DNA of 7,327 nucleotides. Source: a virus (lineage: Duplodnaviria > Heunggongvirae > Uroviricota > Caudoviricetes). Position numbers and translations under genes: made by a program. Numbering within the stretch: position 1 is the stretch's first letter; the number at the start of each line of letters is the position of its first letter. The DNA is taken from positions 1 through 7,327 of the IMG/VR virus record IMGVR_UViG_2778261418_000025; one strand, written 5' to 3'. The notes beneath the pieces are model-generated. The model searched no databases. It had not been told where the DNA came from and saw nothing but the letters and a program-made list of their open reading frames with translations. This document shows, piece after piece, positions 1 through 7,327 of this stretch.

Positions 1-333
1 TTACTGGCAGGCTTTTTGTCCAATGTAGTATGCAATTGAGCGGTCAACTATAGGGGCCATATTTGGATCTGGTGCTGAGTTATTCATCTGCTCGATGGTC
101 TCACCGTCTCCAAGATATTTAACTGTCCCGGCAGTACAGTCGTACAGCCGCTTTGAATATGATGTTCCAGACGGCCCCTTTCTTTCAGTTGTTATAGTAG
201 CCATGCTGCCGTCGCGAGTCTTATCTAAAATCGTGTAACTAGCCTTCGTATCTGTTGGCACATAAACAACCTCAGCCGCAAACACATTAAATGAAACTGC
301 TGCCCCTACAGCTAATATAATGAAATTTTTCAT
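1..333 (-). CDS. Small secreted protein of unknown function (about 110 aa precursor with N-terminal signal peptide); cargo/moron candidate downstream of tfa
   Basis: ATG at 333..331 with AGGA about 8 nt upstream; the track ORF 1..393 starts at TTG (393) and is probably over-extended. Product begins MKNFIILAVGAAVSFNVFAAEVV (basic residue, hydrophobic core, AxA-like site, no lipobox Cys). Two Cys in the mature part. Stop codon at 1..3. Region looks AT-richer than the rest by eye. Confidence 0.55.
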   Translation of the reverse strand: MKNFIILAVGAAVSFNVFAAEVVYVPTDTKASYTILDKTRDGSMATITTERKGPSGTSYSKRLYDCTAGTVKYLGDGETIEQMNNSAPDPNMAPIVDRSIAYYIGQKACQ

Positions 334-370
334 ATCCCTATTCCTATCATTTGAGTATGCAATAATCCTA

Positions 371-925
371 TCAAGGAACTGAGAAAACGACAAAACCCGC
401 GTTTTGCGGGCTGTCTGGAATGGTCAGGCAATGATGTTCTGGTACTTGCTCCGGGTCTGCCATGTCTAAATCAACGGCATCCTGCAATGTGGCAATGGCG
501 TCATTGGCCTGTTTAAGCAGGCTTTTCTTTTCGGCGTCTGCCTCGCTGACTAATACAATTCGCATGGCCTCCGCATCATCCACCCACGCCTTACCATTCC
601 ATTTTTGCCAGGCATTAGCCGGTGCTAACGTGGTTGTCCCTTCCGGGTAAACACCTGGCTCGGTGATCACCAGTTCATTACCGTTTTCTGTATCAAACAC
701 CACCTCACCACGATGATCCTCACGGGAAATCCATCTTTGCTTCTCTGAATCAAAAATTGCCACAAACCCCACTTTGATTACCGGTGGTTTTATTGTTGTG
801 CAGTTGGCTGGCAGTCCAGTATGCGCAGGAATAAAAGCATCACCTGAACCAATAAATTCATTCGTGTCGGAACGCAGGTTATAAACAGTAACTGTTTGAT
901 CGGTTTCACTCATTTTAAAAGTCAT
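371..925 (-). CDS. tfa: Tail fibre assembly protein (Tfa chaperone), 184 aa
   Basis: ATG at 925..923. N-terminus [48 protein letters not shown] closely matches the lambda Tfa N-terminus as I recall it (MAFRMSE...[20 protein letters not shown]). Its ATG overlaps the stop of the upstream fibre ORF (TAATG). Confidence 0.85.
   Translation of the reverse strand: MTFKMSETDQTVTVYNLRSDTNEFIGSGDAFIPAHTGLPANCTTIKPPVIKVGFVAIFDSEKQRWISREDHRGEVVFDTENGNELVITEPGVYPEGTTTLAPANAWQKWNGKAWVDDAEAMRIVLVSEADAEKKSLLKQANDAIATLQDAVDLDMADPEQVPEHHCLTIPDSPQNAGFVVFSVP
381..410 (-). terminator. Possible weak intrinsic terminator inside the last codons of tfa
   Basis: On the minus strand: CCCGC-AAAAC-GCGGG hairpin (plus 396-410) followed by TTTTGTCGTTTTCTC. 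Stem is only 5 bp and the element lies within coding sequence. Confidence 0.25.
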
Positions 926-1404
926 TATGCGAGTCTCACTATGTAGTTAAATGCAATATTCTTAACGGTCGTTTCTGCGTTGCCCGACGCGGCGATGGTA
1001 ATGGTGTGACTGTGTGCGCCAATGGCTACGGTATGAGAGTGAGCGCCAATACCTACGGTGTGATTATGTGCGCCAATGCCAACCGTATGGGCATGTGCCC
1101 CAGTAGACGATGTTGTTGCGGTTCCAACCGTAAACCCCGTAGCCCCCGCAGCGTTGTTTCCATCACCTTTTTCTTCATTAAGTACAGGCAGCGTATGTGC
1201 ATGCGCCCCCGTTGTATTTGTCGTTTTCGTGCCATAGTCAAATGTGCTCGCCGTTTTAGTACCGTAATCAAATGAGGATGTTGATTTCGTCCCCAAATCG
1301 GTACTGGATGCACTGGCTGTGTGTGAGTGGGATTTATTGCCATCATCTTCATAGGACAAAACTTCGCGGCCGTCTGGTTTCCCTTTGATTGTCCGGCGGC
1401 GCAT
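925..1404 (-). CDS. stf: Side tail fibre protein, C-terminal (receptor-binding tip) fragment, 5'-truncated; about 159 codons from an in-frame ATG
   Basis: C-terminus ...[58 protein letters not shown] with repeated GAHxH units and duplicated FDYGTK, typical of lambda Stf / P2 H / T4 gp37-type fibre tips. Far too short for a full fibre. The track ORF 925..1599 extends upstream only by running out of frame over the gpA 3' end. In-frame ATG at 1404..1402 sits 1 nt after the gpA stop (TGAcATG). Confidence 0.7.
1000..1110. repeat. 27-bp imperfect tandem repeats (about 4 units) encoding 9-aa HTVGIGAHx repeats
   Basis: Units beginning near 1014, 1041, 1068 and 1095 (gtgcgccaat.../gagcgccaat.../gtgcgccaat.../gtgcccc) on the + strand, matching the His-x-His protein repeats of the fibre tip. 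Confidence 0.7.
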
Positions 1405-1405
1405 G

Positions 1406-2542
1406 TCAGGAATAACACCCGACGGATACGCGATGGCCAGTAAAGGATATGCGCTGCACGTCCTCTGCATACTCGTTGCCCTGTTCCGTAATTTCATAGG
1501 CCAGACGAACAACCAGATCACGGCGGGCAACCAGTGCACCGCCCTGCGCCTGGGTATATGCAGCCCAGTCCCCGACATCAGCAGCGGCCAGAACCGCATC
1601 CATTCTGCGATCGGTCAGCACCTGATCCCGCAACCGACGCAGCTCACGCCAGACAGTTACCGGCGCACCACCAATCTGCTGAAACTGACGAATACGCCAG
1701 CGTGAAGCCCATGCAGAAACGGACTTAGCCATATCACGCAGGTTTTCGCCGGTTTCTTCGTCATGCTCACCATCCAGCGCAAAACCATCAATATTTTTTG
1801 AAATGTATTTCGCGATGTAGCCCGTGGCCGAACCTTTGGCGGGATCGATAGCTTCAACATGAAAACGCGCCTTCAGCGCCTTTTCAGATTGCAGTTCTTC
1901 AGAATCGGTAATTCTGGCGTGATAGCAAAGAATATCGCGTACCGTGTCCACGTCATGCGGACGCATAAAAAGCAACATATGCCAGTGCGGTGTCCCGTCA
2001 TGGTGAGGCTCAACAACCCGAAACCCAAATACATGAATACCCGCACGCGAGATCGCTGCGCGTGCTTTTGCCCATACGCCGCATAAATAGCGCTGGGTAT
2101 CCTGCGGCGTACATCCATCCCATTGCGATACAAAGCCACCTTTGCTGTGCACTGCGTGGAAACGTGATGGCGCGGTGATGGTGTAAAACTCACCGGCCAG
2201 CCCTTCTTCATTGGCCATATCTTCAAACCCTCGCATTCTTACCATTAGTTCACATCGACGGATCGCCGGATTTGCAACGCTGCGGTGCACCATGCTGTCC
2301 AGTGCAATGCGCAGCCCCTCATCATTCAGCAGATCAAACTTTTTAAAGAACTCCAGATTCCGCTTTTTCTGGTCTATCCATTCGTCCAGTGTTTTGCGGG
2401 ATACATAAGCGCTGGCCGCTTTTTGTACCTGTCCCACCGCGATGGCCATATGTTCGCGCTGCATATCACGCGCACGTTTAAGACGTAGGTACCACCATTC
2501 CGGCGCCATCATGCGCAGTATCCCGGATTCCGCCTTACGCAT
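1406..2542 (-). CDS. A: Rolling-circle replication initiator gpA (P2 A family HUH endonuclease), internal fragment lacking expected N- and C-terminal regions
   Basis: Contains [17 protein letters not shown] (HUH-type metal site) and [13 protein letters not shown] (paired catalytic Tyr), hallmarks of P2 gpA / phiX174 A-type initiators. At 378 aa it is about half the length I recall for P2 A. The frame is open only 15 codons upstream of the ATG at 2542 (stop at 2588-2590), and the ORF ends by abutting the fibre fragment. Confidence 0.75.
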
Positions 2543-3204
2543 TTCCAGTTGACCTTCATTGGCCTCATGTTCAGCCCAGTACCGCGCTCATGGTAAGCGG
2601 TGAAATTGTCGCTTTCAGTCAGATAAGGCGGATCACAGTAAACAACGTCATTCCCGTCCCGAACCAAATCGAGCGTTTCTGAATAGTGGGCAGTAATGAA
2701 CGTTGCGCGTTTCGCTTTTTCAGCAAAGGCACGGATTTCATCAGCGGGAAAATAAGGCTTTTTGTACTTACCGAACGGGACGTTGAACTGGCCTCGGCGA
2801 TTATACCGGCACAGGCCATTGAAGCAGTGGCGATTCAGGTACAGGAAACGCGCAGCATTTTCAACAGATTCAGAACCGGCCTTACCACCAGAAAGATTGA
2901 AAGCATCACGCACTGCGTAATAGAAAATGGCACGGCTTTCTTCATCACCTAACGAACCGGCAGTAAACAGGATCTCCAGCTCATTCAGCAGCGCATCAGT
3001 GTGATACGCCATCGCCTTATAAAGATTAACCAGATCAGGATTCACATCTGCGATCAGATACTCGTCATAATCCGTATTCATCATGACAGCGCAGGAACCT
3101 GCGAACGGTTCAACCAGGCGTTTACCTTCTGGAAGGTGCGGACGCAGCATAGGCATAATGCGGGCTTTGCTGCCCACCCATTTAAGCGGAGTTTTTATTG
3201 CCAT
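2509..3204 (-). CDS. dam: DNA adenine methyltransferase (Dam family), 3'-disrupted: native sequence to about 2588, then about 25 out-of-frame codons
   Basis: ATG at 3204..3202 with AAGG upstream; the track ORF starts at TTG 3225. Product MAIKTPLKWVGSKARIM...LVEPFAGSCAVMMNTDY...LYLNRHCFNGLCRYNRRGQFNVPFGKYKKPYFPADE...VVYCDPPYLTESDNFTAYHE parallels E. coli Dam through the DPPY motif. The following tail ([25 protein letters not shown]) uses rare codons (AGG, CGG, GGA) and ends where E. coli Dam would continue about 70 aa. Confidence 0.8.
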   Translation of the reverse strand: MAIKTPLKWVGSKARIMPMLRPHLPEGKRLVEPFAGSCAVMMNTDYDEYLIADVNPDLVNLYKAMAYHTDALLNELEILFTAGSLGDEESRAIFYYAVRDAFNLSGGKAGSESVENAARFLYLNRHCFNGLCRYNRRGQFNVPFGKYKKPYFPADEIRAFAEKAKRATFITAHYSETLDLVRDGNDVVYCDPPYLTESDNFTAYHERGTGLNMRPMKVNWKCVRRNPGYCA

Positions 3205-3428
3205 GCCGCACCGCCTTTGCTGCAAATCGCCGCGGCTTCTTCGCGGATCAACTCAACGATTTCCGTTGCGCTTAAACCTTCATTGGCTGCATGGGTGGCC
3301 AGCTTATTCAGACGGGTGGAACACAAATCAGCAGCAGCGGCTTTACCTTCCTGCGTGGCTTTGGTGAGCATTGCCAGCAGGTCAGTGACTGATTTTGTTG
3401 CGGGTAAATCCTGACGTGTCATATGCAT
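3195..3428 (-). CDS. Hypothetical Ala-rich 77-aa protein, translationally coupled to dam
   Basis: ATG at 3428 with AAGGA 7 nt upstream. Its stop overlaps the dam start by 10 nt (ATGGCAATAA). No recognisable motif. Confidence 0.5.
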   Translation of the reverse strand: MHMTRQDLPATKSVTDLLAMLTKATQEGKAAAADLCSTRLNKLATHAANEGLSATEIVELIREEAAAICSKGGAAWQ

Positions 3429-3495
3429 TTTGGTTTCCTTAAGGCAAAAGAATCCCCGGCCACTTGAAACATGGCCAAAAAATTCAGGCGGTTAA

Positions 3496-3897
3496 TTAGT
3501 GAAAAGTGGGGTGTACTGTGGCAGCTGAGTAGTTCGGTACCGGAATCAGGTGCAGTTCATAGGTTGTCCGCCACCACTCCTGGATCAGTGCATTTATCTC
3601 GCCAACTCCCAGCGCCCCGGCTGTATAGAAAATCGCACGAATCCCCGCCAGCGCTTCTATCTGGGCTTCTTTGCTTTCCGCTTCGCGATACACGCAGCAC
3701 CAGAAAGCGGCATTGATCGCCAGCCAGTGACGCGGATTCGTCATGTGCTCGGTGTCATTGAAGAAGAACGGATGCAAAGCGATGCGGCCATTTTTACTGG
3801 TGCTTTTCTCTGTAAACACTACAGCGTAGTTATGCGGGACACCCCACACAGCCAGTTCAGCCCCCAACGATTTACCCTCAACGGAAATAATGGTCAT
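3496..3897 (-). CDS. Hypothetical early-operon protein, 133 aa
   Basis: ATG at 3897..3895 overlaps the stop of the upstream ORF (TAATG). Coding-like codon usage. No recognisable motif. Confidence 0.55.
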   Translation of the reverse strand: MTIISVEGKSLGAELAVWGVPHNYAVVFTEKSTSKNGRIALHPFFFNDTEHMTNPRHWLAINAAFWCCVYREAESKEAQIEALAGIRAIFYTAGALGVGEINALIQEWWRTTYELHLIPVPNYSAATVHPTFH

Positions 3898-4325
3898 TAG
3901 TGATTCCCCTGTTGCTGGAACTTATGGACGATATGAGGTGCAATCACCATCTGTACCCCACTACTGCTATAAATTGGATGTGCCTTTTTGATCGGGCGGT
4001 TCGCGGTGCGCTTTGAAAAATCGCTGTCACGTAAACTGCCGAAACCTTCAAACGTTAACCGCGCCCGTGAAATGCCCTGGCGCAGTTGAATCATGTCCCG
4101 ATAGCCCAGGCGTTCATAAATCTCACGCCAGCAACATTTGCTTAAGTGGGCTTTAAATGCCCCGGAACCAGAAGTAACCGCAGCAGCATGAAGCACCACG
4201 CCGCGCCACTCCGGTGTTAAGTTGTCCCACCATTCAGCGGCCTCGCTGCTTTCGTTGAAGTATTTGCGGCGGATCTGTTTTAAATGCTCCAGCCCGCGCT
4301 TTTGCTGTTCCTGGCTAATCGCCAT
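3897..4325 (-). CDS. Hypothetical early-operon protein, about 142 aa from ATG 4325 (track gives 207 aa from a GTG at 4520)
   Basis: ATG at 4325..4323 preceded by GGGGG 4 nt upstream. The 65 codons upstream in the same frame contain several rare codons (AGG, AGA x2, ATA, GGG) and overlap a better-looking 57-aa ORF in another frame, so the long GTG-initiated model is probably an over-extension. Confidence 0.5.
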   Translation of the reverse strand: MAISQEQQKRGLEHLKQIRRKYFNESSEAAEWWDNLTPEWRGVVLHAAAVTSGSGAFKAHLSKCCWREIYERLGYRDMIQLRQGISRARLTFEGFGSLRDSDFSKRTANRPIKKAHPIYSSSGVQMVIAPHIVHKFQQQGNH

Positions 4326-4333
4326 AACGCCCC

Positions 4334-4507
4334 CTATAGTCCCATCAGACGACGCCACCACGGGCGGCGCGGCTGCTGGCCATTGAATTTGTACATGTGG
4401 CCAGGGTTCCAGCGCTGACCGTTTGGCAGTTCTATCCAGCCCGTTGAACCACTCGGCAACTGCATGGCTGGTGATTCTTTTTTCAGGTAAGTGACAAACG
4501 CTTTCAT
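4334..4507 (-). CDS. Small hypothetical protein, 57 aa (MKAFVTYLKKESPAMQLPSGSTGWIELPNGQRWNPGHMYKFNGQQPRRPWWRRLMGL), not in the supplied ORF track
   Basis: ATG at 4507..4505 with GAGGGA 6 nt upstream, 9 nt after the cII stop. Codon usage is typical (CTG, CCG, CGC, CGT, CAG, GGC). Stop TAG at 4336..4334 overlaps the SD of the next gene. Confidence 0.5.
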   Translation of the reverse strand: MKAFVTYLKKESPAMQLPSGSTGWIELPNGQRWNPGHMYKFNGQQPRRPWWRRLMGL

Positions 4508-4516
4508 GGTGTTCCC

Positions 4517-5020
4517 TCACATCAGGCCGGTGGCGTTGGTTGTGACCAGCTCCACCGCCGCAGCCAGAACAGGCGCAGAGTGAATACGGCTTTCAACGGT
4601 ATAAGCCAGCACGGATAAGCTACGGATTGCATCGCGGGCACGATCCAGAATTTGAGTACGGCGGGCGGCAGTCATATAGCCAGTTGATACGGCTTCCCCA
4701 GCAATCGCGCCCACACTGGCTGTGGCACTCAGTGCGCACAACTGCATGTTGCCTTCTGTGGCATTGTTCACCGGCACGGATGGAAGGCAGTTAATCTGAC
4801 CTAACATCCCATCAAGCAAACGCGCATCTTCGGTGTAATCCGTGATAGCCAAAAGCTCATCACAGGTCAGGCGGTGCGGTTGTGCTGGGTTCAGTTTGTT
4901 GCGCAGGATCTGCGGCCTCATACCAACGGCAGCGGCCACATCTTCAAGATTGTGCTCAATTGCAAATGCTCGGCAAGCCGCATCAAAGTGCGCATGTTTA
5001 GAGGTCTGGTAATCAAACAT
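4517..5020 (-). CDS. cII: CII-like transcriptional activator of lysogeny (phage 186 CII family), 167 aa
   Basis: MFDYQTSKHAHFDAACRAFAIEHN...GMRPQILRNKLNPAQPHRLTCDELLAITDYTEDARLLDGMLGQINCLP matches my recollection of 186 CII (MFDFQVSKHPHYDEACRAFA...GMRPQVLRNKLNPEQPH...). ATG at 5020 with GGGAGAGG 6 nt upstream. Confidence 0.8.
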   Translation of the reverse strand: MFDYQTSKHAHFDAACRAFAIEHNLEDVAAAVGMRPQILRNKLNPAQPHRLTCDELLAITDYTEDARLLDGMLGQINCLPSVPVNNATEGNMQLCALSATASVGAIAGEAVSTGYMTAARRTQILDRARDAIRSLSVLAYTVESRIHSAPVLAAAVELVTTNATGLM

Positions 5021-5050
5021 TGTTTGCCTCTCCCGAATCCGTAGGATGGA

Positions 5051-5272
5051 TTACGCGTTAAGCGAAATGTCACATTCGCTTAAAGCCTGAATAGTGAGCG
5101 CGGCCATGTTGACTTCGACCAAGCCTTTCTTCTGCTTACCCTTCGGCTTAATAGGTAATTTCCCGTATTCGATCAGGTTCCTGGCGGTTTCTTTGTTGGT
5201 ACCAGTACGGCGGCAATACTCGTCTAAAGGCAGGTATGGCTCAGGGATGATGATTGTAATGTTCGGACGCAT
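5051..5272 (-). CDS. apl: Apl/Cox-like small DNA-binding protein (excision directionality and lytic-switch regulator), 73 aa from ATG 5272
   Basis: First gene of the leftward operon facing cI, the position of 186 apl / P2 cox. Small and basic (MRPNITIIIPEPYLPLDEYCRRTGTNKETARNLIEYGKLPIKPKGKQKKGLVEV...). ATG 5272 has GGAG 8 nt upstream; the track start at 5305 is a TTG. Assignment is by synteny and size, not recognised sequence. Confidence 0.5.
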   Translation of the reverse strand: MRPNITIIIPEPYLPLDEYCRRTGTNKETARNLIEYGKLPIKPKGKQKKGLVEVNMAALTIQALSECDISLNA

Positions 5273-5343
5273 GAGGCAAACTCCACAAGTTAACCTGTAC
5301 GGCAATACAGGGTTATATAAGGCAACATTCGAAATATGGAGCC

Positions 5344-5372
5344 AGATTAATTCGCGTTTCGAGAAGTGTCAA
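5344..5372 (-). promoter_or_regulatory. Candidate lytic promoter (pR-like) for the apl-cII operon
   Basis: Minus strand: -35 TTGACA (plus 5372..5367), 17-bp spacer, -10 TAATCT (plus 5349..5344), about 65 nt upstream of the apl ATG. The -10 is a weak match, so the exact hexamer is uncertain. Confidence 0.45.
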
Positions 5373-5393
5373 TTTTAATTTCTCGAATCGAGA
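5357..5393. promoter_or_regulatory. Candidate operator: inverted repeats bracketing the -35 element
   Basis: TTCGAGAA (5358-5365) and its exact reverse complement TTCTCGAA (5380-5387) flank the -35, with a second palindrome TCTCGA-a-TCGAGA at 5381-5393. Three TCGAGA-type hexamers lie within 36 bp. Confidence 0.4.
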
Positions 5394-5407
5394 CTTATGG
5401 ATTCGCT

Positions 5408-5989
5408 ATGAGCACATTTAAAATCGACCTAAACGTAGATAGCACACCGATTCTTGACAGGGTGATCGAGGCTTACGGATTTACGCAGAAGTTACAGCTC
5501 GCGGAACATCTGGACATGGCAGCCAGTTCTCTTTCTTCACGCTACAAGCGTGGAGTTTTCCCGGCAGACATTGTCGTGAAATGTGTAGCCGAAACAGGCG
5601 CTAATCTGGAGTGGCTGGCGACAGGACAGGGACGTAAATTTAATGATGATGAATTAGACATACTCAAAATACCGCGCAGCAAGATTGTTGATGGCCAACT
5701 CTATGACGCTGGCACACTTATGCTTGATAAAGTCATCTTCCTGCCTGGTAAGCCCTTACCGCAACAACCGATTTGTGTTCTGGATGGCCTTGTTCAGTAC
5801 ATTGTTGACCAGTCTTATTCTGAAGTTTATGACGATGATTGGTTGGTTGAAGTTGAAGGAAAAACAAGCGTCCGCACTCTTACACGGATTCCGGTACGAA
5901 AAGTCAGAGTTAGCGGTGTTGGTATGGCATTTGATTGCGGAATTGACGACATAAAAATCATAGGCCGCGTTGTTCTGACGATAAAATAA
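5408..5989 (+). CDS. cI: CI-like immunity repressor (phage 186 CI family), 193 aa from ATG 5408
   Basis: MSTFKIDLNVDSTPILDRVIEAYGFTQKLQLAEHLDMAASSLSSRYKRGVFPADIVVKCVAETGANLEWLATGQG matches my recollection of 186 CI (VLDRICEAYGFSQKIQLANHFDIASSSLSNRYTRG...ETGANLQWLLTGEG). C-terminus ...FDCGIDDIKIIGRVV also parallels 186 CI. The track start at 5366 is a GTG with no SD. Confidence 0.85.
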   Translation: MSTFKIDLNVDSTPILDRVIEAYGFTQKLQLAEHLDMAASSLSSRYKRGVFPADIVVKCVAETGANLEWLATGQGRKFNDDELDILKIPRSKIVDGQLYDAGTLMLDKVIFLPGKPLPQQPICVLDGLVQYIVDQSYSEVYDDDWLVEVEGKTSVRTLTRIPVRKVRVSGVGMAFDCGIDDIKIIGRVVLTIK

Positions 5990-5990
5990 A

Positions 5991-7031
5991 ATGAGCGTTC
6001 GTAAACTTCCTACAGGCGAATGGATCGCCGACTTCTACACCGTCAACCGCAGTAATGGCAAGAACGGGAAGCGTATACGTAAAAAATTTGCCACGAAAGG
6101 GGAAGCCCTGGCATTCGAAAACCATACGCTTCAGAAAGTAGACGCAGCTCCGTGGCTGGGTGAAGGGAAGGACAAGCGAACTTTAATAGATCTGATAACA
6201 ATGTGGTATGAACGCCACGGCGTAGCTTTGAGCAATGGCGAAAAGCGTAAAAATGCTATGACCTGGGCGGCGGAATGCATGGGATTCCCGCTGGCCACAG
6301 AATTTAATGCCCAGTTGTTCACAGCCTACCGCGCTAAAAGGCTGGATGGGCATTATGCCCGTACCAACAGAGTATCTAAGGTTTCCCCGAAAACTATGAA
6401 CCTTGAACATGCTTACTTCCTGGCTATGTTCAACGAGCTGAAACGGATTGGTGAATGGTCAGCACCCAACCCACTAGAAAACGTCAGACAGTATCGTACT
6501 GATGAAACCGAAATGGCTTTCCTCACTACCGAAGAAATTGATCGGCTTTTACTGGAATGCAAACGAAGTAAAGTTAAGTACCTAGAATTAGTTGTCAAAA
6601 TCTGCCTTGCTACCGGCGCAAGGTGGAATGAGGCGGCAACGCTGAAAAGCTCCCAGATCGCCGGGGGTAAAGTCACGTTCGTCAAAACCAAAGGGAAGCG
6701 CAACAGAACAATTCCCCTTGATGATGAACTTCTGTCCGAATTACCTGAAACAAAAGGCGCTCTGTTCCCCAAGCCCTGCTACAACGCTTTCCGCTCTGCT
6801 CTGGAACGTGCAGGCATTGAACTCCCCTCCGGCCAGCTTACCCATGTACTGCGCCATACATTTGCCAGCCACTTTATGATGAACGGCGGAAACATTCTGG
6901 TTCTGCAAAAAATTCTCGGCCACGCTGACATCACTATGACAATGCGTTATGCCCATTTCGCCCCAAGCCACCTTGAAGATGCCGTGCGACTTAACCCCTT
7001 AAAATGTCGCAAAAATGTCGCGACAGCTTAG
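5991..7031 (+). CDS. int: Tyrosine site-specific integrase (P2/186 Int family), 346 aa
   Basis: N-terminus MSVRKLPTGEWIADFYTVNRSNGKNGKRIRKKF resembles P2 Int (MAIKKLDDGRYEVDIRPTGRNGKRIRRKF, recalled). Catalytic motifs present: TGARWNEA, HVLRHTFASHF, LGHADITMTMRYAHF. ATG lies 1 nt after the cI stop (TAAaATG). Confidence 0.9.
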   Translation: MSVRKLPTGEWIADFYTVNRSNGKNGKRIRKKFATKGEALAFENHTLQKVDAAPWLGEGKDKRTLIDLITMWYERHGVALSNGEKRKNAMTWAAECMGFPLATEFNAQLFTAYRAKRLDGHYARTNRVSKVSPKTMNLEHAYFLAMFNELKRIGEWSAPNPLENVRQYRTDETEMAFLTTEEIDRLLLECKRSKVKYLELVVKICLATGARWNEAATLKSSQIAGGKVTFVKTKGKRNRTIPLDDELLSELPETKGALFPKPCYNAFRSALERAGIELPSGQLTHVLRHTFASHFMMNGGNILVLQKILGHADITMTMRYAHFAPSHLEDAVRLNPLKCRKNVATA

Positions 7032-7198
7032 AAATACTGCCGAATACTCACAGATATTAACTAACGTAACTTATTGATAACACTGTAAGTTATTGTTTTT
7101 CGTAGATAGTTGATGCTTTATAATATAGCCTGTGCTATATCTGTATGTAATGCAATCATCCCTCAAGGATCGACGGGATTAGCAAGTCAGGAGGTCTT
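7032..7198. other. AT-rich att-proximal region downstream of int (probable prophage end / Int arm-site region); core not identified
   Basis: Immediately 3' of int, where P2-like phages carry attP. Visibly AT-rich with short direct repeats (AATACT at 7033 and 7043; TTATTG at 7071 and 7090) and a TATAAT at 7119-7124. No tRNA-like sequence recognised. Confidence 0.35.
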
Positions 7199-7327
7199 AT
7201 GAATGAGTTCAAGAGGTGTATGCGCGTGTTTAGTCATTCTCCCTTTAAAGTACGGTTAATGCTGCTCTCTATGTTGTGCGATATGGTCAACAACAAACCG
7301 CAGCAAGATAAACCTTCCGATAAATAG
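7199..7327 (+). CDS. Small ORF, 42 aa (MNEFKRCMRVFSHSPFKVRLMLLSMLCDMVNNKPQQDKPSDK), unknown function
   Basis: Consensus SD AGGAGG (7189-7194) 4 nt before the ATG at 7199; stop TAG at 7325-7327. Too short to appear in the ORF track. May lie outside the prophage. Confidence 0.4.
   Translation: MNEFKRCMRVFSHSPFKVRLMLLSMLCDMVNNKPQQDKPSDK

Follow-up and report, generated by a model that had tools for sequence, protein, structure and literature searches.

A stretch of DNA of 7,327 nucleotides from the IMG/VR virus record IMGVR_UViG_2778261418_000025 (positions 1 to 7,327; the whole stretch is called the window here) starts at its left edge with a small gene for a protein of 110 amino acids. The gene lies beside a tail fibre assembly gene (tfa). 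A preliminary description, made from the letters of the window, took it for secreted cargo at the post-tfa position known from phage P2 and considered a role in phage exclusion or host interaction. Which kind of gene is this, what does it belong to, and what might its product do? We found that it is an optional, terminator-bounded, horizontally mobile single-gene cassette which encodes a conserved protein with an export signal. Taken as a whole, the locus is probably explained as a 'moron', a self-contained accessory cassette that belongs to an ESSI-2/HP1-like phage of the P2 family.

The gene is complete and its product has a predicted export signal

The preliminary description had the gene cut off by the window edge. 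Actually, it is a real, complete and intact open reading frame (ORF); as had been stated, the window ends exactly at its stop codon, which occupies bases 1..3 (TTA on the plus strand).

1..333, minus strand: complete coding sequence, from the ATG (333..331) to the TAA stop (3..1), of the 110-residue, presumably exported protein, whose mature part has about 91 residues and contains C66 and C109
334..345, minus strand: ribosome-binding region AGGAATAGGGAT, immediately 5' of the ATG, read from the sequence
277..333, minus strand: part coding for the putative signal peptide, residues 1-19 (MKNFIILAVGAAVSFNVFA), with a predicted cut VFA↓AE according to hydropathy and the -3/-1 rule

The product is identical to RefSeq WP_000787654.1, and the identical protein is encoded on many contigs of many strains (2528 index blocks). 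The ORF finder gave a TTG at 393 as the start; this was rejected because the extension would cross a terminator. The N-terminus of the precursor has one Lys, a hydrophobic core of 16 residues, V at -3 and A at -1. Among the relatives the N-termini vary in sequence and are hydrophobic in every case; the conserved domain starts at about residue 25 (alignment A1, 36 sequences). In an AlphaFold2 (AF2) model the predicted local distance difference test (pLDDT) was 54-56 for residues 1-20 compared with >95 thereafter. Sequence and model together predict Sec-dependent export of the product, with cleavage behind VFA. The Sec-type signal peptide on a precursor of about 110 residues, as first described, was thus borne out as a prediction.

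The two cysteines which had been noticed in the mature part are C66 and C109. Both are invariant in the 36 sequences of A1; in a broader alignment of 56 sequences (A3) C66 is invariant and C109 nearly so. Residues 1-65 are free of Cys. Therefore, a lipobox is absent; cleavage is predicted at a site for signal peptidase I. The gene was also said to lie in a visibly AT-richer stretch. Its G+C content is indeed lower than that of the window (43.8% vs 49.5%), yet the dip is modest and no lower than in the CI gene (44.7%).

ORF and terminator travel as a unit

On the minus strand the cassette consists, in this order, of the late-operon terminator, a promoter-like site, the ribosome-binding site, the ORF and its own terminator. 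The late-operon terminator separates the cassette from the tail genes, the last of which codes for a baseplate-like protein of 566 residues in intact prophages. A second, strong terminator is located 40 nt 3' of the stop codon, beyond the window edge. Positions outside the window are given for the locus in question; L001 is the chromosomal locus that contains the window, L025 and L017 are siphovirus prophage loci.

384..412, minus strand: intrinsic terminator that closes the upstream late operon (AGCCCGCAAAACGCGGGTT, then a T tract); stem 412..394; 12 nt past the stop of the 566-residue gene in intact prophages
346..374, minus strand: weak sigma-70-like promoter candidate (TTGATA, 17 nt, AATGAT); 9/12 positions match, no better than in shuffled sequences
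L001 10374..10392, L025 7334..7351 and L017 ~8335..8352: shared terminator stem AACCCGC...GCGGGTT after the gene of the 110-residue family

The stem AACCCGC...GCGGGTT is common to the cassettes of E. coli, Salmonella and Klebsiella, and the DNA upstream of the genes is unrelated. Therefore, ORF and terminator travel as a unit. In the siphovirus copies the shared-stem terminator is situated just upstream of the tape measure gene, within the tail operon. A search against Rfam found no RNA family in the window.

Classical envelope morons and lysogenic-conversion genes are bor and lom of lambda, gp15 of HK97, llp of T5 and cor of phi80. The cassette resembles them as a single extra gene with flanking terminators, at most a slightly AT-richer composition and a presumably exported product. 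Like them it is present in only some collinear phage genomes (13 of 50, see below). However, the 110-residue protein is unrelated in sequence and fold to the classical moron and conversion proteins.

The neighbourhood of tfa was made by a deletion

To what does the cassette belong? The window is identical to a part of GenBank CP057725.1 (L001 3007..10333, reverse strand) and spans from the stop codon of the 110-residue gene to mntS. In an E. coli chromosome, it represents what is left of an ESSI-2/HP1-like P2-family prophage that sits between mntS and mntR and has become cryptic. When the locus was compared with K-12, where this site is empty (L012 5068..5082), the element proved to be inserted in the mntS-mntR spacer. 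The attachment (att) core was identified at both ends of the element; therefore the 110-residue gene lies inside the integrated element.

7115..7129, no strand assigned: attL core GCTATATTATAAAGC (minus-strand reading), one mismatch against attR
L001 11739..11753: attR core GCTATATTATATAGC, a 15-bp palindrome about 1.4 kb left of the window

mntS and mntR are divergent, and the att core sits in the 185 bp that separate them. With the prophage inserted, the distance between the two genes is 8.5 kb here and about 29 kb where the prophage is intact.

The intact counterpart is a ~29-kb prophage of E. coli 1919D3 (L011). Its 566-residue protein shares 94-96% identity with the counterpart in Escherichia ESSI2_ev phages and 80% with the one in Cronobacter phage ESSI-2; phages of Haemophilus, Vibrio, Aeromonas and Pasteurella have more distant relatives. 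Relative to the 1919D3 prophage the remnant has suffered three internal deletions, each with 5-6 bp of microhomology at the junction, by which about 20 kb were lost.

Junction 454..459: deletion 1, 3.0 kb, reaching from the 3' end of tfa almost as far as the end of the 566-residue gene
Junction 1448..1452: deletion 2, 16.6 kb, from the tail fibre gene to replication gene A
Junction 2581..2586: deletion 3, 0.77 kb, from gene A to dam
454..925, minus strand: truncated tail fibre assembly gene; the ORF 371..925 is an out-of-frame fusion of tfa', a pseudogene
424..459, minus strand: 3' remnant of the gene for the 566-residue baseplate-like protein, consisting of its last 30 nt and the TGA stop (426..424), with the 6-bp microhomology of deletion 1 included; reads ...KYQNIIA*, matching L007 8210..9910

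Window positions 1..459 correspond to L011 4634..5092 and window positions 454..1452 to L011 8109..9106. Therefore, a 3.0-kb deletion with a 6-bp microhomology joins the two segments. Intact tfa codes for 195 residues. In the truncated copy the Pfam Caudo_TAP match covers only positions 1-96 of the 131 profile positions, and homology to E. coli begins at 454. The tfa' frame reads out of frame over the last 30 nt of the 566-residue gene and then through its terminator. Thus, the gene is next to tfa only because of a deletion-made junction: physically the two are adjacent, as the preliminary description had it, yet adjacency was created by the loss of 3.0 kb and tfa is a truncated pseudogene. 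In total, the deletions left the pseudogenes tfa', tail fibre', gpA' and dam'. The early region with int, CI, apl, CII and fil is intact, and the cryptic remnant may still confer immunity.

The true slot is att-proximal

In intact prophages the order is tail fibre gene, tfa, a 241-residue gene, a 181-residue gene (HP1_ORF34), the 566-residue gene, the 110-residue gene, variable cargo and attR. In this lineage the slot that truly varies follows the 566-residue gene, on the att side. This does not agree with the original assignment to the Z/fun slot of P2 after tfa, because the gene order is of the ESSI-2/HP1 type and the 241-, 181- and 566-residue genes lie between tfa and the 110-residue gene. 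In P2-family phages Z/fun after gene G and a cos-proximal hotspot are documented variable cargo loci (PMC13586616; PMC9122126). The accessory loci of P2 itself are Z/fun after gene G and old/tin between A and Q. The slot examined here is like them a variable cargo locus; it differs from Z/fun by its att-proximal location, with three more structural genes between it and tfa. The ~300 bp between A and ogr are empty in this lineage.

The 110-residue gene is carried by 13 of the 50 complete E. coli genomes which have the 566-residue gene. It is absent from K-12 and altogether from 5413 of 5426 complete E. coli genomes. In prophages devoid of the gene, homology stops at the stop codon of the 566-residue gene or at its terminator. 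There, the slot contains an 84-residue cytoplasmic gene followed by a 411-residue gene, or a DUF6338 gene and two further genes, or a membrane acyltransferase. The 110-residue gene is missing from the genome records of ESSI-2-like phages. In the records of ESSI-2, ESSI2_ev015, ev129 and ev239 the 566-residue gene lies 200-310 bp from the record start, in ESSI2_ev040 only 18 bp. Hence, the view that the gene is optional phage cargo in a variable region with an exported product, as predicted from its signal peptide, was correct, and so was the expectation of further cargo to the left. When the sequence was extended leftward and annotated in L001, the terminator was followed by about 0.6 kb of non-coding DNA, an acetyltransferase gene and attR at a distance of ~1.4 kb; in some relatives ShosTA is present.

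A conserved family in unrelated phages

Next, the relatives of the protein were collected. At 90% identity 80 homologous clusters were obtained, from Salmonella, Citrobacter, Klebsiella, Yokenella, Pseudomonas, Thiobacillus and metagenomes. The proteins are uniform in size: 71 of the 80 clusters have 109-112 residues, the remainder span 104-149. All clusters named by their sources are called 'hypothetical'. Searches of Pfam, NCBIfam and PADLOC returned no match for the 110-residue protein; PHROG 13843 matched with an E-value of 1.9e-47 and is listed with the function 'unknown'. Between E. coli and Thiobacillus about 50% identity is kept. Twenty positions are invariant in the 36 sequences of A1, including the motif R-x-G-x-S-G-x-S-Y-S-x-R-x-Y-x-C...VKYLG. 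The invariant polar residues are D28, R51, S55, S60, R62, Y64, K72 and S86. Synonymous sites are saturated (dS, synonymous substitutions per site) while dN, the nonsynonymous counterpart, is 0.26-0.51. Because of this saturation dN/dS is not computable.

An exhaustive profile search yielded 640 clusters at 50% identity. In many of these the sequence is the C-terminal domain of a longer protein, behind a membrane helix, a zinc ribbon, DUF4124, an SH3 domain or a lipobox. With such N-terminal anchors and signals the domain would therefore always be located outside the cytoplasm.

The genomic contexts of homologues are diverse. In the P1-like phage D6 the gene is located between ddrB and prt. In siphovirus prophages of Klebsiella and of Salmonella/Citrobacter it is found just upstream of the tape measure gene, either directly after a DUF6246 gene (L025, L026) or among other small cargo genes (L017-L019). 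In a lambdoid prophage of P. putida (L014 7087..8333) it lies 72 bp downstream of an S24-family repressor on the same strand; this is a classic place for genes expressed in the lysogen. A P2-like phage has it near portal and ogr, an island has it together with integrase, AlpA and resolvase, and in Pseudomonas it is found amid small phage-like ORFs. No conserved neighbour or partner gene emerged, as the neighbours in E. coli, Klebsiella, D6 and P. putida are mutually dissimilar. PADLOC had no match among ten further neighbours. In IMG/VR 112 copies on viral contigs were confirmed. The pattern scan was done with alignment A1, as A3 was too diverse for a scan. Among the 18 closest copies 16 are within 3 kb of the end of the viral contig.

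Could the gene nevertheless be an ordinary chromosomal housekeeping gene for a periplasmic protein, or a dead leftover ORF adjoining a prophage? The surrounding prophage is decayed and the Thiobacillus copy has housekeeping genes as neighbours, as this reading would have it. Yet the gene resides inside an att-bounded element, it is missing from K-12 and the vast majority of complete E. coli genomes, and 8 out of 9 examined contexts belong to a phage or an island. Further, the ORF is intact and identical across many strains, and the protein is conserved despite saturated synonymous sites. Because of the att boundaries and the distribution this reading is largely refuted, and we accord it hardly any probability.

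The predicted fold is reminiscent of Protein E

The AF2 model had a mean pLDDT of 89.7, with 95-98 for residues 21-110. It consists of strands at residues 21-23, 32-41, 44-53, 56-65 and 70-77, a short helix (80-85) and a C-terminal helix (100-109). In a Foldseek comparison with the PDB the six best matches were all Protein E of H. influenzae (probability 0.85-0.98, template modelling (TM) score 0.46-0.58). The best match in BFVD, a collection of viral models, is annotated 'Surface-adhesin protein E'. Protein E has a six-stranded antiparallel sheet, and a disulfide links its main helix with the end of beta4 (PMC6652776). In the model C66 follows strand 56-65 and C109 is in helix 100-109. By their positions in the model the two residues correspond to the disulfide of Protein E. 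From model and sequence the product is thus predicted to be a ~10-kDa curved antiparallel beta-sheet which clasps a C-terminal helix, with a disulfide C66-C109, i.e. a Protein E architecture devoid of a lipid anchor.

By sequence the connection is faint. The window protein does not reach the gathering score of Pfam Adhesin_E (PF16747) and has no match there. Among the relatives Adhesin_E was the only recurrent Pfam match, below threshold in 11 of 56 (best E-value 0.013). hhalign gave no usable match with Protein E alone or with a narrow alignment of Protein E from Pasteurellaceae. The antiparallel beta-sheet plus C-terminal helix of Adhesin_E is present in the model. The protein is not classifiable as Pfam Adhesin_E although its model shares the fold, because the threshold of the hidden Markov model is missed and the lipobox is absent. 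A PDB match to a 'flagellin hook IN motif' (profile E-value 2.2e-7) was rejected; it was composed of four identical 19-residue matches (Y..x..V.YLG.G.T) with an E-value of ~43 each, a short-motif artefact.

The fold raises the possibility that the product is a host-interaction factor like Protein E, which would bind matrix components or complement regulators of the host (vitronectin, laminin, plasminogen) and aid the lysogen in adhesion or serum resistance. Both proteins have an N-terminal export signal, a curved antiparallel sheet and a C-terminal helix that is, in the model, tethered by a disulfide. However, the 110-residue protein has no lipobox or lipid anchor and so no obvious route to the cell surface. 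Its mature part is shorter (~91 vs ~144 residues) and ~10% identical. Unlike Protein E, the family is phage-borne and also present in environmental bacteria such as Thiobacillus and P. putida, where animal ligands are irrelevant. In spite of the predicted fold we regard this role as unlikely.

A cell-wall-directed protein is another option. It might be a small peptidoglycan hydrolase or toxin such as PseM/TdeM of P. aeruginosa (from the descriptions we take PseM and TdeM to be one protein), or a periplasmic inhibitor or immunity protein. PseM (PA0989) is a periplasm-acting toxin with a signal peptide, a beta-sheet core and a disulfide from sheet to helix (PMC12494544), and one relative of the 110-residue protein is fused to a bacterial SH3 domain. 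PseM/TdeM (PDB 9m3l) is a muramidase linked to a type VI secretion system; a literature search on TdeM returned nothing relevant. The 110-residue protein ends at the disulfide helix and has none of the C-terminal helices which form the dimer and the active-site crevice of PseM. A toxin would need an immunity gene, yet none is adjacent, nor is a neighbour conserved in any context. Up to an E-value of 10 there was no sequence similarity to 9m3l, and the catalytic residues of PseM are themselves poorly defined. A role as lysozyme inhibitor was rejected as neither sequence nor fold matched Ivy, MliC or Pli. Taken together, action on the cell wall of this kind is quite improbable.

Possible functions in the lysogen

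How might a lysogen profit from the cassette? The 110-residue gene fills the variable cargo slot between the last late gene, that for the baseplate-like 566-residue protein, and attR, and has survived in the remnant after the three microhomology deletions. Its close and distant relatives are solitary genes in unrelated temperate phages. According to the explanation we prefer, the product would be exported by Sec, cleaved and folded with a disulfide. Made in the lysogen, it would act in the periplasm and bind a conserved component of envelope or cell wall via the invariant polar residues. The lysogen might thereby exclude other phages, be protected when its cell wall is attacked, or interact with an animal host. 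That the protein is expressed in the lysogen and binds a conserved envelope ligand with a benefit at the envelope level is a tentative proposal, possible though not probable. A conserved cellular ligand is favoured over a phage target because conservation is strong across distant hosts and because the domain is part of many anchored non-phage proteins.

Exclusion proteins which act in the periplasm or envelope exist, e.g. Sp of T4, Llp of T5 and gp15 of HK97. Does the 110-residue protein block adsorption, cell-wall penetration or DNA entry of superinfecting phages, as initially suggested? In sister prophages the same variable slot houses ShosTA. Further, the P. putida copy is located directly downstream of a repressor in the same orientation, and the copy in the P2-like phage is within the portal-proximal region, a known defence hotspot (PMC9122126). 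These locations are compatible with exclusion. The protein itself argues otherwise: PADLOC found no match for it (0 families) nor for its neighbours in other contexts, and the predicted fold recalls an adhesin and a muramidase and no known exclusion protein. In addition, the family keeps ~50% identity and 20 invariant residues all the way from E. coli to Thiobacillus, which hints at a conserved ligand of the cell and not at diverse phage targets, and the domain is also used in many anchored proteins outside phages. Therefore, we consider exclusion as such doubtful.

A more far-reaching version of the accessory-cassette explanation would see in the family a new, widespread class of phage-borne periplasmic proteins with a minimal Protein E-like fold. 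They would shield lysogens via a conserved component of cell wall or envelope, for example by blocking cell-wall penetration by incoming phages or muramidases of competitors. One gene would then be common to P2-, P1-, lambda- and siphovirus-type prophages of Gamma- and Betaproteobacteria. At present, this generalization appears improbable.

Several points weigh against the cassette explanation and, above all, against its functional part. The step to function is weak; it is drawn from position and conservation. Export of the 110-residue protein is itself a prediction from sequence, and the 9/12 match of the promoter is at chance level. The Foldseek E-values for Protein E are not significant (0.16-0.41), and an hhalign profile comparison with Protein E gave 20% probability for the last helix only. 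In many members of the family the domain is part of a longer, anchored protein that is apparently not from a phage. In a metagenome-assembled genome of Thiobacillus the homologue is at a contig end beside ordinary chromosomal and housekeeping genes. Finally, the contexts were found via the protein itself; therefore its retention in remnants is not readable as selection. Literature searches on the protein accession and on Adhesin_E in prophages returned nothing relevant.

At the moment the main value of the analysis is corrective. The apparent post-tfa cargo is a product of prophage decay and the true slot is att-proximal, with ShosTA or other cargo in sister prophages. If a phenotype were found, a function would be assigned to a sizeable uncharacterised family of 640 clusters for which no Pfam or NCBIfam model exists and which very different temperate phages exchange as a single gene. 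Protein E, a vaccine antigen, and the Pseudomonas muramidase would then be tied to a broader fold family.

Other cargo of the slot

The genes which accompany or replace the 110-residue gene are as follows.

L001 10955..11563, minus strand, opposite to the 110-residue gene: hexapeptide-repeat acetyltransferase (serine acetyltransferase according to PGAP), last gene before attR
L003 10911..13955, also in L004 and L009: ShosTA plus a DUF6680 gene, replacing the acetyltransferase (PADLOC ShosA, E-value 2e-52; ShosT, E-value 4.7e-10)

The acetyltransferase has an N-terminal extension of about 110 residues. In another sister prophage (L021) a gene of the membrane acyltransferase family takes the same place. 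Such acetyl- or acyltransferase cargo could modify surface polysaccharide. The 84-residue gene (MVTCSINPYHDIADESKRD...; 7878..8132 in both L020 and L022) is unrelated to the 110-residue gene and has no export signal; it occupies the same slot in many sister prophages. In L008 (10001..11751) the 110-residue gene and the acetyltransferase are together at another site, between yeeX-side genes and cobS/cobT, beside phage tail and lysis genes. This layout suggests a rearrangement or a second integration site.

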